Source: Octopus sinensis (taxonomy: Eukaryota). Taken from it: a stretch of 33,068 bases of DNA. Of this stretch, positions 3,146-33,068 are shown piece by piece (the stretch's first letter is position 1; each line of letters starts with the position of its first letter). The notes under the pieces are model-generated. The model had not been told where the DNA came from. It was given only the letters and a program-made list of their open reading frames with translations, and did no database searches. The stretch covers positions 1 to 33,068 of the forward strand of contig NW_021836046.1 of the NCBI RefSeq assembly GCF_006345805.1, in the 5' to 3' direction. The position numbers and the translations under genes are program-made.

Positions 3146-3649
3146 GGATCTTTTCGGTTTGAACGGCAGTTTTTTCTAGCGGTGTTATATGAAATTGTCA
3201 CCCATAATTATGACCCTAGAATCGATCTATTGCATTTCAATCTCTTTTAGGGTTAGGGTTAGAGTTAGGGTTAGGGTTAGAGGTGGGGGGAAAGGGTATT
3301 TTTTTTTTCTTCACAAATGTAAATTAACCCAATCTGATTCTTAAGCGAGGGACATATTCATACGGCACAGAATTCTTTTTGACTCAATAGACGTCACTGT
3401 TTCGTTGAAATTGTAGAAATTAGGCAGGAACAAAAAAAAAATTAAAGGTGGGTGCCAGATAAAATAACAGTACAGTACCAATAATAATGGAGGCACAGAA
3501 ACAACAAATATCTTACAAACTATAGAATTTTCTCAATAAAGCCAAGAGAAAAAGATGTTTTATAACCACATTCTACCAGTATACGAAGTTAAAAATTTTT
3601 AGTTACCTAGAAATTATGTTAAAAACTGCCGTTCAAACCGAAAAGATCC
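3146..3649. mobile_element. MITE with 29-bp TIRs and 8-bp TSD (Merlin-like), containing TTAGGG repeats
   Basis: TIR ggatcttttcggtttgaacggcagttttt / aaaaactgccgttcaaaccgaaaagatcc. TSD aacttatt at 3138-3145 and 3650-3657. GG...CC termini. Confidence 0.9.
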
Positions 3650-13720: not shown

Positions 13721-14041
13721 ACGATAAATGATAAACGTCGCCCTTTTCGGGCCTAGCCAGGCTCATGAGCCCGGTTTCCCGGTTTCTGTGACGTATGTGT
13801 ACCCCCACCCCGAGCTGGACGGGACGCCAGTCCATCGCAGCGTTTCTCAAGAAACAGGAAGAGAGAGTGAGAGAAAGTTGTGGCGAAAGAGTACAACAGA
13901 GATCGCCACCACCCCTCCCGGAGTCTCGTGGAGCTTTTAGGTGTTTTCTCTCAATAAATACACACAACGCCCGGTCTGGGAATCGAAACCGCGATTCTCC
14001 AACCGCGAGTCCGCTGCCCTAACCACTGGGCCAGTGCCTCC
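13721..14041 (-). mobile_element. SINE family B head with V-domain-like tail
   Basis: Minus strand gctgcgatggactggcgtcccgtccag. TSD tttatgc(c/t)tatta at 13708-13720 and 14042-14054. Confidence 0.9.
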
Positions 14042-14293
14042 TTTATGCTTATTACCAGACTGCAAGAACGTGATGTAATGAAAATGAAGATGATGTAAAA
14101 GTTGGAATAACGAGAAAACTGCATCATTAAGCTTAAATATAAAAGAAAATGTTAATCAAAGTACAAAATAGATGTAATGATAAAGATAAAAGTGGAATAA
14201 GGTGATGCGTGGATAGGAAGGTATTGAGAAATATAGACAAGCATTTCAGGCCAACAGGCAGATAGACTGGCTGTCCTACAGACGAGCAGATAC

Positions 14294-15588: not shown

Positions 15589-15778
15589 GTTATATATATA
15601 TATATATAATATATATATAACATAGGACTAAAGTAAAGCCATTTGAATATGGCTAGGGACAGGGCAGGGTGGTGGGGGTGTTACTGTTGCATTTAGCCCC
15701 AGGCGAACATCGACGTCGCCAGATAGGCTTGACACCATCACGGTGTCCTTAACCTGCAAAGGGAGATAATTCCCCGAT

Positions 15779-15852
15779 GAAGCGGAAACCACACACGGAC
15801 CATGGTTTCAAGGTGTATTGCCTATCATCAACGTGTGGTAGGCCCCCGCTTC
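15779..15852 (-). ncRNA. Type I hammerhead ribozyme motif (U3 variant)
   Basis: Minus strand: cacacg UUGAUGA u-agg-caauaca-ccu-u GAAA CCAUGG UC^ cgugug. Stem I is extended by gaagcgg/ccgcuuc. Confidence 0.75.
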
Positions 15853-16153
15853 CTCGACGAAATCTCACTCTGCAGGATATTCATATATAATTTTCAAGCA
15901 AAATACATTTGCTGATTTCGAAATCTGTTCGACAGCAATAATATTACTGGCTAAAAATGCAACAGTACACCCCACCACCCTGCCCTGTTCCTAGCCATAT
16001 CAAATGGCTTTAGTCCCTTATGTTATGGAGCAGTACTGTCTATATCTCATTTAGAGAATTATTATTGCTGTCGAACAGATTTTCGAAATCAGCAAATGTA
16101 TTTTGCTTGAAAATCTCTAATATGAATATCCTGCAGATTGAGATTTCGTCGAG

Positions 16154-16226
16154 GAAGCGGGAGCCTACCACACGTTGATGATAGGCAATACACCTTGAAA
16201 CCATGGTCCTGTGTGGTTTCCGCTTC
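16154..16226 (+). ncRNA. Type I hammerhead ribozyme motif (U3 variant)
   Basis: ccacacg (16168-74), TTGATGA (16175-81), stem II, GAAA (16197-200), CCATGG, TC^ (16208), ctgtgtgg. Confidence 0.72.
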
Positions 16227-16780
16227 ATCGGGGAATTATCTCCCTTTGCAGGTTAAAGGACACCTTGATGGTGTCAAGCCTATCTGGCGACGTCGATGTT
16301 CGCCTGGGGCTAAATGCAACAGTAACACCACCCTGCCCTGTCCCTCGCCATATTCAAATGGCTTTAGTCCCTTATGTTATGGAGCAGTTACTGTCTATAT
16401 CTCATTTAGAGAATTATTATTGCTATATATATATATATATATATATACATGCACACACACGTACGTACACACACTCATACATACATACATACATGCATAC
16501 ATACATACAAACATACATATTAATTAGTTTTGAAAATATCTTAATATGAAACCCGATGATTTTGTACTTTTCAAAGGGTTATTACACTTATAAATAACAC
16601 ACGCAATTGTTTTTGTTTATTTCGGTTTAATTGCTAACTAGATTAATCAATTAAGTATTGACAAGCTAATCAATACGTAATTAATTGATTAACATATTAG
16701 TTTTGCTAGAAAATCATGTAAACGTCAGCAAGTTCTTCGTTTTAATTGCAAACTAATTTTCCCAATATAAACTACACACA

Positions 16781-16820
<40 letters not shown>

Positions 16821-16857
16821 TACATATATACATATATATATATATATATGTATAATA

Positions 16858-17165
16858 GGCGCAATGGCCCAGTGGTTAGGGTCGCGGACTCGCGGTTGTA
16901 GGATCGCGGTTTCAATTCCTAGACCGGGCGTTATGGGTGTTTATTGAACGAAAACGCCTAAAGCTCCAAGAGGCTCCGCCAGGGGCTGGTTGCGATCCCT
17001 GGTGTACTCTTTCGCCACAATTTTCTCTCACACTTTCTTCTGTTGGTCCGTTTGCTTAGCCAGCGGGGTGGCGTCATTTGAAGGCTAAAACAATGCGAAG
17101 CGCATTGTGACCAGCGATGTGTAGCAACATCTGATGGCCTGGTCGGACACGGTGATCACGGTGAT
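16858..17165 (+). mobile_element. SINE family B head with tail Z ending in (cacggtgat)2
   Basis: Head near-identical to 2059-2220. Tail unrelated to X or Y. Confidence 0.88.
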
Positions 17166-18599: not shown

Positions 18600-19960
18600 A
18601 TTCGGAGAGGAAGGATATATGCACCAGGGTATCATTGAAAGAGATAAGATGAACTAACACAAGATGAAAAAAATGCGCCGGAAAGGGTGTTTGAGGAGAA
18701 CTCGGTTTGTGCTCCAAAGCTAAATGGTCGCTATAAGATTAGACCAATTATCATGTGGGCGGTGGCTTTGATGAAATATGGGGCAGGAATAGTATCTTGG
18801 AAGAAGGATGAGTTGCAAGAGATAGACCGGAGAACACGTAAATTAATGACAAGGAACAAGGAACTACACCCCAAGAGTGATGTGTCATAGTTGTATGTAA
18901 AGAGGAAGGTCGGGCGGGGATTGCTGTGTTGTGAAGTTTGTTTAACCCTTTTGTTACTGCATTTATTTTGAGATGCTCTGAGTTTCTTTCAATTATTTTA
19001 AATATTACAAAGAATTTAGTAAAATAACTTAGTTATCATTAAGTTAGTGTTAGGAACATTAATTGTGACTAAGGTTTGGTGGAAGATTTTATTCAAAACT
19101 TATGAAAACAAGACATTTGTACTGAAAGCCAGAGCCGGTTTCAGCCGGGTTGGTATCAAAAGGGTTGGGAAGAGAAGAATAGCGTGGCTTGGTATGTCAA
19201 GGGGAGTAAAGAAGAAATGACTGAAGCAGGGAAAATGCAGGGAACCTTAAAAGTCTACGAAGCTGTAGATCCAAAGCAATTCAAGAAAGACCAGAGTTAG
19301 CAGATGAAGAAAATTTGGCAGGACAAGAAAATGCACAGTCAGTTCTTGAAGAATAAAGATGAAATTGATTGGAATAGAACCCGGCAATGGCTGAAAAAAG
19401 GAGACTTAAAAGGGCCCGTTGAGGCATTAGTGTGCAGCGCTCAATAACAAGCTCTCAGAACAAACTACTCAAAATATATCACATTGATAAAAGCACTGAC
19501 TCGCCACTGTGTGGGATGTGCTCTGAGAAGGGAGAAGGTATAAGCTATATTGTTAGTGAGCGCTGTAAGCTCGCACTACGTGAATACAAAAGGAGACGCG
19601 AAAATGTGACCAGATATGTCCACTGGCTCTTGTACGGTAAAGCAAATCTCGAGAGAGCTGAACAATGGTATGAACACAAACCAGAGGTAGTAATGGAAAA
19701 TGAACATTAGAAAATACTCTGGGATTTTAACATGACATGCGACTAAGTCATAGAGGTGAGACGACCAGATATCGTGCTGATCCATAAAGATGAAAAAGGA
19801 GTAATGATAATAGATGTTGCAACACCAGGCGATTCGAGGCTGAAATGTAAAGAAACAGAAAAGATTGAGAAATACCAACCACTGCGGGACAAGATAGGAA
19901 AGTTATGGGGCATATGGAAAGTAATGGTGATACCGGTGGTAAATTGAGCTTGGGTATTAT
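18600..19960 (+). pseudogene. R4/Dong-clade non-LTR retrotransposon fragment (RT thumb, CCHC knuckle, restriction-like endonuclease)
   Basis: KLNGRYKI..WAVALMKYGAGIVSWKKDELQEIDRRTRKLMT..LHPKSDV, then PLCGMC, ILWDF and RRPDIVLIHKDEKGVMIIDVATPGD..EKIEKY. Stops and frameshifts present. Confidence 0.88.
18946..19164. mobile_element. piggyBac-like MITE nested in the LINE
   Basis: TTAA|cccttttgttac ... gtatcaaaaggg|tt. Right TSD imperfect (ttgg). Confidence 0.75.
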
Positions 19961-19979
19961 GAACGAGCAGCTAGAAGAA

Positions 19980-20757
19980 AACCTCTCCTTCAACCAATTA
20001 ATATCATGAAAAGAAAGAAATGGGCTGAGGAGATGTCAGAAAAATCCAGTTCATTTTGGGATAGAGTGATTTTCTCAGATGAATCCAGATATGCTTTATT
20101 TTCAGACAGTGGACGTGTTTGGGTCTAGAAGCTTCCCAATCAAGAATTTGATTTGAAACGACTCCAACTAACTGTGAAACATGTCGGTATCTCTGTAATG
20201 GTACGGGGAGCTGTCACCAGCAATGATCGTTCTGAGCTGATCGAATGTGTTGGAGCCATAAACTCTGAAAAATACATCGAAATACTTAAGCAAGGACTAC
20301 TTCCGATGTATTCACACAATAACATAACGAAAAATGAGTTTTATTCATGGAAGATGGGGCTCCATGCCACAAAGCGAAAAGGAATCAACAATGGCTGACT
20401 GAAAATGGGATGAAAACGCTTCCTTGGCCCAGCCGATCTCCTGACATGAACCCAATTGAAATCTTTGGAGCATACTAGATAGAGCTATACGATAAACTCG
20501 ACAGAAACCTAAATCTAAAGATGAATTGTTTCGATTGTTGCGTGAAAAGTGGGCAGAAATTCCACAAGAGACAATCACAAAGCTCATCAGTTCAATGCCA
20601 AAAAGAGACACTGAATAAAAAAACTGCAAAGGGAATGTCAACTAAATACTAAAGAATGTAGTCCTCCCTCTCGATTACATGTCAATTATTCGCTTTGCGT
20701 ATTAAATAAAAGATTTTGAAAATGAAAGGTGTCTATTTACTTCCTGCATGTTTGTGT
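19980..20757 (+). pseudogene. Tc1 (DD34E) transposase, catalytic half, and 3' end
   Basis: [39 protein letters not shown] and LISSMPKR motifs with stops and frameshifts. Confidence 0.9.
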
Positions 20758-23729: not shown

Positions 23730-24219
23730 TTAATGGTCATTCGGAATGCTCACAGCAGCCATATTCCTACCGCTCTATGTCACGCTGGTGAGACCCATAT
23801 TGGAGTACGGGATTCAAGCCTCTTCTCCTTATCTCCTCCAAAGACATACATTATCTCGAAGAGTCCAGAAGCTGGCTACCTGCATGGTTCTTGGTCTCAA
23901 GCATTTGTCTTATGAAGAAAGGCTGAGGACGCTCGACCTTTATTCTCTTGAAAAACGCCGCCGCCGTGGTGATCTCATTCTCGCCCACAACATCATAAGC
24001 GGAAAGTGTAACCTCTCGAAAGAGCTGTTCTTCACTCCTGCTCCAGAGCGTCGGCTGCGGAGTCACTCCGAAAAGCTCTATCTGCGACGATTTCATCTCA
24101 ATCGAAGGAGAGGGGCTTTGTCTGTCCGGGTTGCATGAACACCCTCCCTGTACATAACTCCATGTCCCCCTACATGGCCTTGCTTTTTGCTTTTTGAGCC
24201 AAAAAATTAACTTAACTTA
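23730..24219 (+). pseudogene. CR1-clade LINE 3' fragment
   Basis: LYVTLVRPILEYG..SPY..VQKLAT..LSYEERLRTLDLYSLEKRRRRGDLI..RSHSEKL, with a ttaacttaactta tail. Confidence 0.9.
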
Positions 24220-28829: not shown

Positions 28830-31318
28830 CAGTCATGGGCATCCTGTGGCCCACGAAGATTTCTGAATGGCTCACCTAAATTTGAAACGAAAAAAATTGC
28901 CATCGTCAGACAACTGTATAATTTTCAAAGTGCCTCAGAGTCGATCCACAGCAATCCAAATATTCAAGACCGTATTGATTTAATGTTCAATTTCTGATTC
29001 CAATGTTTATAATGACTTGTGATAGTTCAGCGACTGTCAACACACGTGATATTCGTGTAACGTTGTCAAGCAGGATTAATGGAATTTTCAAAGAATTAGT
29101 GTGCAAAATGCTGTGTTTTTTTTTTTTGGGAATTTTAATTTTTGATGTCTAAGCTAATGGCTTTATTCCCAAAAAAAGAATGATTTCCGAAGAAATGAGA
29201 ACATTCCAGGAAAGCTGGACAAATGATTATTTATTTCATGACGTAAAAAACAAAACAATATGTTTAGTATGTCTCCACTTTATGCAGCGAGCTGGCAGAA
29301 ACGTTAGCACGCCGGTCGAACTGCGTAGCCGTATTTCGTCTGCCGTTACGTTCTGAGTTCGAATTCCACCGAGGTTGACCTGGCCTTTCATCCTTTCGGG
29401 GTCGATAATTTAAGTACCAGTTACGCACTGGGGTCGATATAATCGACTTAATCCGTGTGTCTGTCTTTGTTTGTTCTCTCTGTGTTTAGCCCCTTGTGGG
29501 TAGTAAAGCAATAAGTAATTCGTCTGTCGTAACGTTCTGAGTTCAAATTCTGCCGAGGTCAACCTGGCCTTTCATCCTTTCGGGATCGATAAATTAAGTA
29601 CCAGTTACGCACTGGGGTTGATGTAATCGACTTAATCCCTTTGTCTGTCCTTGCTTGTCTCCTCTATGTTTAGCCCCTTGTGGGCAATAAAGAAATATAT
29701 TTTAATGCGTAGCCGTATGAAGGCAGCGAGCTGGCAGAAACGTTAGCACGCCGGGCGAAATGCGTAGCCGTATTTCGTCTTAGAAGAACTTGAATCAGAG
29801 TATGGTAACCTTGTTTACTACTGTGCAGCTCGTTGGCTAAGTAAGGGGAAGATGTTTCGACGATTTTATAGCCTGCGAGAAGAGGTGTGTACCTTCTTAG
29901 AAAAAAAGGGTAAATTTGTTCCGGAGCTGAAAAATGATAACTGGATTTGTGAACTTGCATTCCTCGTGGAGATAATAACACATTTAAATGATTTAAATTT
30001 AAAATTGCAAAAGCAAAATCAGTTAATCCATGAGATGTATTCCCATGTCAAAGCTTTTCAAGCAAAACTTCAAATTTAGGAGAATCAACTCAGGATTGGT
30101 GATGCTTTTCATTTCCCCATTCGCGGGTCAACATCTAGATATGATGATTTTGCTGCAGAGCTTAAATGACCTGAAAAAATTGAACTGAACACCAGATTTA
30201 ATGACTTTAATCTTTTCAGAAATTTCTTTAACGCTGATGGGGAAAAAGTTCGGAAGGAATTGCAAATGGATCTAATTGAGTTTTCAGAGTGATGAATTCC
30301 TTCGGCAAAAATTTAAAGAGGAATCATTTAATGCATTTTTATATGGAACTCTACCCGAAGAAAACTGCTTGAAATTAGTGTGCTTTGCTAGAAGATATAC
30401 CACCATGTTTGTTAGTACGTATAAATGCGAACAACTCTTTTCTAGAACGAAAATAATAAAGTCGAGAACCAGGTCAGGATTGACTGATATTCATCTGGAA
30501 GGCAACTTACGAGTCGCAACATCGCAAATTCTTGTAAACATTGAGAAACTCACAGAAAATGCACAATACCAGGTTTCTCATTAAAATTAGTAAATTATTC
30601 CTATTAACATCAATAACAAATGGCTGATAAATACGATTTTATTTGTCTGTATTTTGTTAAGCATGGTGTGTGGCGTAGTCGAACTATTTTCATCGTCTGT
30701 ACTGCTCTATTTTATTCTTTTGTTATACTTCAGGTAAATTAATTTGTTTTTCAAATTCTTTCCTTTTTTCTATTTTTTAGTTTCTTTCCTTTATCATAGA
30801 TAGATAACGCGTAATGTTAAATGCACATATCTTAATTCTTTTTAATTGTTTGTTTACATCTTTTAAGCATTTTCCCTAAGTACAATAGCTTGAAACGGTT
30901 CGACTGAACCACATACGTAACAATGACTAAGTACTATATTTCTTGAATTTTGCAACCTTTCGTTGAAAGTAAGGTTTTCGGTATTTAAAAATATTGGCGG
31001 ATATTTACATGTTTTGTTCCAAAAACAAAACGTTCATAATAATTCTTTTCTCCGGAGAAATATTTTTGGCGCTAATTAACATATCAGAATAATAAAATCT
31101 ACGATGAAATGTAAATAAAACCTTTCTGATGTTTTTACCTCAACTTTTCATTTGTAATTTATGTTTCTATCATAAACAACATGCACGAATTCTGGAAAAA
31201 ATAGATCAGAACAACCTGAGTTACCACTCTTTTTTAATGTGGGCACGAATGTAAATTAGCGCTTGCGGCCCGCTTAATTATGAGACATATCTCATGCAAG
31301 AAAGGTTGCCCATGTCTG
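28830..31318 (+). mobile_element. hAT (Charlie/SPIN/GTF2IRD2-like) transposon, decayed
   Basis: TIRs cagtcatgggcatcct / aggttgcccatgtctg. 8-bp TSD cgctagag/tgctagag. RWLSKGK, LAFLVEIITHLNDLNLKLQ and STYKCEQLFS..RSGLTD motifs at 29782-30584. Confidence 0.93.
29284..29780 (+). mobile_element. Cluster of family C SINEs (full, partial tandem, head) inside the hAT ORF
   Basis: Units at 29284-29514, 29515-29696 and 29721-29780. Confidence 0.9.
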
Positions 31319-31460: not shown

Positions 31461-31902
31461 TAGGCGGCGAGCTGGCATTAAGGCGGCGAGCTGGCAGAAA
31501 CGTTAGCACGCCGGGCGAAATGCTTAGTCGGTATTTCGTCTGCGTTACGTTGTGAGTTCAAATTCCGCCGAGGTCGGCTTTGCCTTTCATCCTTTCGCGG
31601 TCGATAAATTAAGTACCAGTTACGCACTGGGGTCGATGTAATCGACTTAATACCTATGTCTGTCCTTGTTTGTCCCCTCTGTGTTTAGCCCCTTGTGGGT
31701 AATAAAGAAATAGAAATAGGTATTTCGTCTGCCGTTACGTTCTGAGTTCAAATTCCACCGAGGTCGACTTTGCCTTTCATCCTTTCGCGGTCGATAAATT
31801 AAGTACCAGTTACGCACTGGGGTCGATGTAATTGACTTAATCTGTTTGTCTGTCCTTGTTTGTCCTCTCTGTGTTTAGCCCCTTGTGGGTAATAAAGAAA
31901 TA
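31461..31902 (+). mobile_element. Family C SINE with partial tandem duplication, single insertion
   Basis: 15-bp TSD ggtagat(c/g)tattttg at 31446-31460 and 31903-31917. Confidence 0.92.
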
Positions 31903-32387
31903 GGTAGATGTATTTTGAAATAGAAACAGAACCATCCCCACGCGACGTAATTAATCTTCTAGCGTGACGTCATCGCGATGGATACATAACACGCTGTCGC
32001 AGCACAGATTTTCAAGTAATTACAGAACCAACTGCTAATAACAAAACAACACTTCATTAGATATCAACCATATGGATAATTAACATACATTAATAATTGA
32101 GAAACGTTAATTAGTGAAAGAAAACAGTGTTGCTAATAATACAAGCTATATTGAAAGTGAGCGGCGAATGGTTATTCAGTTACGGGTAATATACGTGCGG
32201 GTTGGTAAAGTAGATAATCTCGGATATGGGGTTGGGGTTTTGAGGGTGCGCAGATGTATGAGGCAGGATTCAGTTACTCTGTTCTTGTGATATCTATGAT
32301 GAAGAATATGATAGTAGTGTGTTGGCTGCAGTATAGAGACGTATTACTCACGAACGAGGATACTTTGGCAGCATACTCTATGCACTG

Positions 32388-32698: not shown

Positions 32699-32830
32699 AC
32701 ATTTTTTCGGCCATCTCAGAAACGTCTGAACCACTCGTACACTTGTAGGCGACTCATACACTCCTCTCCATAAACTTTCTGCAAATTTGCGTCGGCCTCT
32801 GAGAAGATATCGCCATCAAAACTTTCATTG
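32698..32830 (-). pseudogene. mariner transposase N-terminal HTH fragment
   Basis: NLQKVYGEECMSRLQVYEWFRRF*DGR. Confidence 0.8.
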
Positions 32831-33068
32831 CGACAATCACACGCTACACATGTTCCTTCCGGGCACTGCTGTAAACAGCAGAAGAGCGCTACAACATTAA
32901 AACATATAATGTATATATATATATATATACAATTTGTATATGCCACAATTTGTATATGTCTTTGCATATGGGTATGTGTGTGTGATTGTATATATGTTAA
33001 TGTTTTATATAAATATATACATTCATATCTATTTACCTATGTAACTAAGTATCTATCTATCTATCTAT

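Follow-up and report, generated by a model that had tools for sequence, protein, structure and literature searches.

Penelope-type insertion anatomy in a young family of hammerhead-bearing, retrozyme-like units of Octopus sinensis

The stretch of DNA analysed here, termed the window, comprises 33,068 nt of the Octopus sinensis genome (contig NW_021836046.1). Near its middle lies an element with a (TA)n microsatellite on both sides. The left half of this target site (15591..15616) is followed by an inverted arm on the minus strand (15617..15943), which contains unit positions 1-317 with about 10 nt of the preceding unit and is 95% identical to the plus unit. A 5-nt inter-arm junction, read from the sequence (15944..15948), leads into the plus-strand arm (15949-16424), a partial unit followed by a whole one. 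The partial copy (15949..16069) is 5′-truncated, retaining the last ~120 nt of the upstream unit and no hammerhead. The single full unit (16070..16424) is non-coding and structured, with a length of 355 nt here and 361 nt in most copies. Its last 44 nt (16381..16424, plus strand) are a ‘tail’ located between the two fixed end sites of the family, unit positions 317 and 361, and present at one end of the element only. The right half of the target site occupies 16425..16448. TA is found at the end corresponding to the left half in 46/56 inverted-arm loci and at that corresponding to the right half in 62/76 loci. The outer ends of the element, 15617 and 16424, coincide with the two fixed end sites, 317 being the tail-less one; the inverted arm ends at 317 when a 5-nt duplication is read past by eye.

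Each strand of the element encodes one type I hammerhead. The copy of the inverted arm (15777..15855, minus strand) has U3 at 15831 and predicted cleavage after C17 at 15798, and that of the plus unit (16151..16229) is predicted to cleave after C16208. The latter is composed of an outer stem I, a UAC/U internal loop, an inner stem I which has lost one G, and UUGAUGA with U3 at 16175. These are followed by a U·U pair with a 3-bp stem II (U-AGG/CCU-U), a CAAUACA loop, GAAA, the palindromic ACCAUGGU and GUC. A preliminary description of this DNA had placed the parts correctly, from U3 (16175) through UUGAUGA, stem II, GAAA, ACCAUGGU and GUC to C17 (16208). The terminal redundancy that it reported is also present, as a direct repeat of 15955-16069 and 16312-16424 with 92% identity over 117 alignment columns, and corresponds to the truncated upstream unit. 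Its period of ~359 nt needs correction to 353-357 nt in the window, 361 in most copies and 360 in cyclic contigs. Two hammerheads do exist, but they lie on opposite strands and the upstream plus piece (~120 nt) carries none, contrary to the earlier statement that each unit has a ribozyme. Stem I, given as cacacg/cgtgtg, is intact in the minus-strand copy only; the plus copy is short of one G after C1.1, which may reflect a mutation or an assembly error.

The pair of hammerhead units on the same strand by which a retrozyme is recognised does not occur in the window. As a transcript of the window holds one ribozyme, a long hairpin is predicted rather than the release of a monomer, and the copy is probably a dead-end, inert insertion product. 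The description of a retrozyme-like unit is upheld at the level of the family, whose non-coding, structured, circularly permuted unit of ~360 nt contains a type I hammerhead with a palindromic stem III of the dimer type, but not for the window locus, which cannot release a monomer. Read-through RNA of 15617-16424 from either strand would form a near-perfect hairpin of ~320 bp, a layout present in 56/76 loci, and this hairpin could serve RNA editing or the production of small RNAs as a substrate. The circular fold of the full unit has a z score of -4.9 (40 shuffles). Minimum-energy folds mispair stems II and III and do not display the active core. A coding role was rejected, as the one longer frame of the unit has no Pfam match and frame-breaking indels separate the families.

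Several other repeats are found in the window. Decayed DNA transposons occur at 74-529, 29768-30584 and 32716-33036 (DDE_1/Tc5 of pogo/Tigger-like type, hAT dimerisation and Mos1-type HTH), with weak Pfam matches, two of the four over the cut-off. The segments 19423-20035 and 23734-24138 have the look of LINE fragments by eye, and the two frames tested gave no Pfam match. Tandem pairs of a 184-190 nt repeat are located at 29331-29697 and 31530-31903, and inverted copies of another short interspersed repeat at 13936-14052 and 16846-16962; these short repeats are probably of SINE type. A short interstitial (TTAGGG)n tract of 5.7 copies lies at 3247-3282.

The unit is not confined to the window. 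A 34-nt core matches the genome exactly at 123 places, whereas its reversed control has 0 matches, which excludes chance. Searching the 2.72 Gb assembly with the unit returned 1177 candidates, of which 40 were scored, mostly 91-97% identical. Copies diverge from the column majority by ~2%, and the family is young and dispersed. Among 76 examined loci, 56 have an inverted arm, 62 a (TA)n 3′ end, ten have two same-strand hammerheads and none has three; for C3-C4 loci, defined below by their core, two same-strand hammerheads occur in 1/26. No array beyond ~2.4 units was seen in the 76 loci. The tandem organisation assumed previously does not hold in the genome, where copies are dispersed and two same-strand hammerheads (10/76 loci) are the maximum. 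The counts leave out duplicates of the same place (L016, L026, L179, L182, L188, L189, L212, L214, L224, L225 and L227), and two probable duplicated loci were excluded, L018 from the comparison of arm divergence onwards and L196 from the tree analysis onwards. The unit of the family is non-coding, falls within the 150-450 nt typical of retrozymes and has one type I hammerhead, as theirs do. Among the papers listed by literature searches, none described a cephalopod or octopus hammerhead, retrozyme or ribozyme circRNA family. In a DNA run, the summed contig depth at unit ~222-300 (locus L002:1722-1800) reaches 300,000-700,000, while the rest of the unit stays between a few thousand and 30,000. 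This part of the unit may be shared with a much larger relative; family G, with 106 exact tail motifs, is no obvious explanation.

The hammerhead core deviates from the canonical C3-U4-G5-A6-N7-G8-A9 / G12-A13-A14 / A15.1-U16.1 / H17, as U3 stands opposite G8 in the window. For the 100 copies listed out of 150 in the family, 84 are U3-U4, 15 C3-C4 and one U3-C4, with no canonical core; the remaining core positions are near-invariant. The sister families B, C and D are canonical, and G has U3-A8 in 23/23 copies. Maximum-likelihood trees nest the C3-C4 subfamily (A′) inside the U3 copies, although the U3 copies as one clade are not rejected (AU p 0.47). The nesting suggests that, on the sequences compared, U3·G8 may have preceded C3-C4. 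At position 10.1/11.1, the window's family (A) has U·U and G has G-C, whereas C·A is found in B, C and D. The U·U mismatch, which the preliminary description had listed as a caveat, weighs little, since weakly active hammerheads with U·U or with U4C occur in nature (PMC3088659, PMC7229834). The only precedent found for U3 opposite G8 is a halophile variant with an insertion (PMC7151607), and the literature searched gave no measured cleavage rate for such a core; the caveat raised on U3 in the preliminary description stands. The U3·G8 ribozyme of the window is probably slow rather than dead, and measurable cleavage by U3·G8 dimers is given slightly less than an even chance.

The three-stem type I architecture is supported by covariation, which had been proposed as a test of the ribozyme. 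The alignment used comprises 28 rows, 24 of them distinct, picked as intact-looking from the matches to a fixed-spacing pattern in A, A′, B, C and D. Pairing is preserved in 95.6% of its 432 cells, and 14/18 pairs show double changes; slid controls gave 13-52%, and 0/500 shuffles reached the score. The palindrome of stem III is present in 112/114 family-A copies. The palindromes differ between families and are intact in 10/21 copies of B, 7/10 of C, 6/6 of D, 22/23 of G and 0/2 of B2. Loop III is either CAUG or CUAG in all 100 listed family copies, and the swap occurs within the U3 background, a restriction which fits selection for dimer pairing. Rfam reports no hammerhead in the window; it also misses a canonical-core sister copy, so that this blank is uninformative.

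Family B has an older 357-nt unit with 3278 candidates, while the 360-nt unit of family G, the nearest sister, is 78% identical to that of the window's family. Families C and D came from a loose pattern (858 matches vs 17). At least five further related hammerhead groups (B, B2, C, D and G) are represented at loci L073-L102, L150-L169 and L200-L229, B and G having ~360-nt units with matching end sites. Two more hammerhead groups occur at L161-L163 and at L151/L152/L164/L169.

The most informative feature of the locus, overlooked by the preliminary description, is an insertion anatomy of the Penelope type, consisting of the inverted arm, the 44-nt tail and the TA target. It has been reported that Penelope-like elements (PLEs) are marked by partial tandems, an inverted 5′ copy, an optional one-end tail of 30-40 nt and a (TA)n target (PMC8557442, PMC3846280). 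The octopus family displays a 5′-truncated partial tandem with an inverted 5′ copy (56/76), a tail at one end (47/54) and a TA target (62/76). Of 129 contiguous arms, a count that leaves out 2 non-contiguous ones, 49 have their end at 317, 47 have it at 361 and 11 have it at 357. The two fixed end sites, 317 and 361, are 44 nt apart, and 47/54 two-armed loci combine one end at 317 with another at 357-361, in either arrangement. The same anatomy is shared by families B, G and A′. In an anole PLE, the tail has been traced to two internal start sites of the reverse transcriptase (RT), with both target strands cut and extended, and ribozyme cleavage is dispensable for insertion in vitro (PMC11167929). 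PLE-type mobilisation of the octopus family is regarded as highly probable.

The genome also contains autonomous elements with RT and GIY-YIG domains, in intact frames of 762-781 aa with a Neptune-type CxxC linker. Intact ORFs of 775-781 aa (RT + GIY-YIG, CxxC linker) are located at L062:1032-3374 and L065:2245-4569. The 3′ ends that were read for one autonomous PLE family also enter (TA)n, and an abundant autonomous family carries a minimal U3-A8 hammerhead ~70 nt ahead of its (TA)n end (L038:2360-2400). No PLE protein from the same genome matches the flanks of the 76 loci, in which the sole case of a shared 5′ flank is one duplicated locus. A search for the autonomous partner by DNA similarity to the unit was negative for 30 GIY-YIG loci (from 5029 candidates, 150 of which were scored), and no widely spaced hammerhead pairs pointing to a partner were found. 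A family sharing the tail was considered as the partner and turned out to be another non-coding sister family. Fragments of autonomous PLEs are found no more than ~1 kb from the retrozyme-type copies at L057, L187 and L205, which is consistent with a shared (TA)n target.

The near-identity of the copies allows the origin of the arms to be followed. Opposite-strand arms of one locus differ by 0.94% (156/16535 columns) and tandem ones by 1.1% (104/9417), compared with 2.9% between loci. Locus-private variants are common to the arms at eight loci, the window included, with 9 and 5 discordances between arms at diagnostic sites. Both arms of a locus share the same variant, as these comparisons show, which favours a single template; gene conversion could homogenise them too. 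Self-priming fold-back has been discussed for PLEs (PMC3846280). When fold-back of one cDNA was scored at 59 of 99 loci, the other 40 being single-armed, irregular or with other ends, 36/59 two-armed loci were compatible and 23/59 fitted neither geometry. Two separate cDNAs per insertion would account for the 23, which trimming could also mimic. The arms exceed one unit in 64/129 cases and two units in five, lengths that are biased upward as loci were chosen for a full unit or hammerhead; the longest arms, 765-879 nt, are also the longest loci seen. The tandems look to have been formed at insertion.

The predicted cleavage site is crossed 122 times by the arms, with six stops nearby and no excess over background. 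A truncation pile-up at this site was accordingly rejected, the hazard being 0.0032 per nt at positions 121-140 vs 0.0027 overall. The lack of excess indicates that the template was not a cleaved linear monomer, which leaves an uncleaved multimer or a religated circle. A circular template, as proposed before for retrozymes (PMC4209133, PMC7229834), is reasonably likely, as it would best account for a length restored in each round when no array above ~2.4 units is seen.

Traces of the unit were also found in sequencing runs. Of the sampled words, 32-44% occur in fourteen runs guessed to be RNA, which come from five studies, and next to none in four other such runs; the RNA status of runs is a guess, none being on record as RNA, and they were available as contigs only, which give no strand, ends or circularity. 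Three probable RNA runs (X1, X5 and X7) and one genome-scale DNA run (76%) were examined by contig. X5 and X7 each contain one 390-nt contig, equal to a closed 360-nt cycle with a 30-nt overlap, at depths of 8 and 104. A 324-nt piece in X1 spans the same unit joint, which is present in the DNA run too. These cyclic contigs and the X1 piece are of the C3-C4 type, of which 31 genomic copies have the same anatomy, and not of the U3 type of the window. Within the three probable RNA runs, U3-type pieces are found in X1 only, at a depth of 2-3. X1, X5 and X7, from three studies with two organism labels, share an A to G change at unit 191 and a 1-nt loss at 186/187. The changes of this expressed C3-C4 variant are absent from 26 genomic C3-C4 loci, the DNA-run contigs and the assembly (two exact patterns, 0 matches). 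The cyclic contigs are a hint of a ~360-nt circle and not proof, as linear multimers or an unassembled array also yield cyclic contigs.

The explanation preferred for these observations is that a hammerhead-bearing 361-nt unit is inserted into (TA)n in trans by the RT-endonuclease of an autonomous PLE, with a circular RNA probably copied twice, once per cut strand (probability about 0.7). The dimeric ribozyme would cut the transcript of a locus with two same-strand hammerheads, and ligation would close the product into a ~360-nt circle. The PLE protein, for which the Neptune type is the best guess, would then nick both strands of (TA)n and prime at unit 361 and 317. Each cDNA would run a variable distance, often more than one turn, and joining of the cDNA ends would generate the head-to-head arms.

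A related but unlikely alternative is that the family is a non-autonomous PLE derivative whose template consists of linear uncleaved multimers from a master locus, with a weak or vestigial ribozyme and no need for a circle. The deviant core in every listed family-A copy agrees with this, as do the stepwise series of subfamilies, which resembles master lineages, and the missing truncation pile-up at the cleavage site, which an uncleaved template also explains. In the assay of the anole PLE, insertion persists when the ribozyme is mutated (PMC11167929), and 8/9 Xenopus retrozyme dimers remained uncleaved in vitro (10.64898/2026.07.22.740005). However, as the longest arms (765-879 nt) equal the longest loci, linear templates would imply shrinkage in each round unless a longer array exists, and none occurs in 76 loci. 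The double change that keeps the palindrome arose among U3 copies, and unbranched cyclic contigs were obtained in two studies; both speak against this alternative. The idea that the unit is the pseudo-LTR (pLTR) stump of an autonomous PLE after severe 5′ truncation is largely refuted for the sampled loci and very improbable. Its ends, tail and target are those of PLEs, vertebrate retrozymes often match pLTRs (24/57 Xenopus families match Repbase; 10.64898/2026.07.22.740005), and PLE fragments lie near three sister-group copies (L057, L187 and L205). Nevertheless, what precedes position 1 is either the end of the unit itself, an inverted arm or unique sequence, 0/76 flanks match a PLE protein, and A, B and G align across the whole unit with frame-breaking indels. 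At L057 and L187, the PLE piece is set apart from the unit by a microsatellite and other DNA. The refuting possibility named earlier, that the unit is simply the pLTR of an autonomous PLE, is not borne out, with an adjoining PLE ORF at 0/76 loci.

The variant shared by the probable RNA runs (191 G, 186/187 loss), with no match in the DNA contigs, 26 loci or assembly, would fit a unit that persists as a circular RNA replicating itself from RNA to RNA, of which the genome contains occasional reverse-transcribed snapshots. Circles of the mussel retrozyme are likewise unmatched in the genome (PMC7229834). Only slight probability is attached to this, because the comparison covers one assembly and 76% of one DNA run, probably from individuals other than those of the RNA, and because contigs can demonstrate that a variant is present but not that it is absent; nor can the strand be read from them. 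It would be simpler to assume A-to-I editing at 191 together with a source locus that is polymorphic or unassembled. A broader and rather improbable conjecture is that ~360-nt ribozyme circles evolve at the RNA level, possibly RNA-to-RNA, with the core tuned via U3-A8, U3·G8 and C3-C4 to cut slowly and a twin-primed Penelope RT writing the circle into the genome. If such an RNA-level lineage existed, a variant in today's RNA would have no DNA copy.

Insertion in trans of a PLE-copied circle, as preferred here, bears on a wider question, since the mobilising enzyme of animal retrozymes and the circle as template have so far been argued from co-occurrence and pLTR homology only. The Penelope footprint is seen here on young ORF-free ribozyme copies whose near-identity lets single insertion events be read. 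The start sites 317 and 361 represent a defined substrate for the existing in vitro PLE assay. The natural core series C3-G8, U3-A8, U3·G8 and C3-C4 in one scaffold could indicate how much cleavage a retrozyme needs.

The family would act in the manner of an animal non-LTR retrozyme, and its insertions resemble those of a non-autonomous PLE, with cleavage, circle and partner enzyme predicted. Animal non-LTR retrozymes, of ~350-390 nt in mussel and 330/350 nt in axolotl, are similar in their non-coding unit of a few hundred nucleotides, GC content below 50%, self-paired fold, and single type I hammerhead in each unit, whose stem III is short and palindromic (PMC7229834). In the axolotl HHR_Amex2, stem II likewise begins with U·U at its base and stem III has 2 bp (PMC7229834). 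In contrast to the retrozymes described there, the octopus family is dispersed, with at most ~2.4 units and not in arrays, lacks the canonical core among the copies listed, and has a putative circle; the part covered of that account makes no mention of inverted arms, of twin fixed end sites or of a TA target.

Similarities to PLEs with a Neptune/Naiad-type endonuclease include the partial tandem with an inverted truncated copy, the one-end tail, the microsatellite or AT-rich target and a hammerhead in the repeat (PMC8557442, PMC3846280, PMC11167929). The octopus unit differs from the elements as covered in these sources by the absence of an ORF, a tail of 44 nt vs the 30-40 reported, and no pLTR homology found. 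Its hammerhead is full-size, with an extended stem I and an internal loop, whereas that of the genome's own autonomous PLEs is minimal. The non-autonomous elements of Chlamys, e.g. MRC1, are also non-coding PLE passengers that form pLTRs and head-to-tail copies, but, according to PMC8557442, they resemble their autonomous partner at the 3′ end and belong to a clade without canonical hammerheads. Retrozymes have already been argued to be non-autonomous PLE derivatives moved by PLE enzymes (10.64898/2026.07.22.740005), so that the kind of element is known, and the octopus family agrees with this. That study was based on co-occurrence and pLTR homology in 31 vertebrates, three insects and one coral, with tandems attributed to local amplification, whereas the evidence from the octopus is the anatomy of the insertions themselves.
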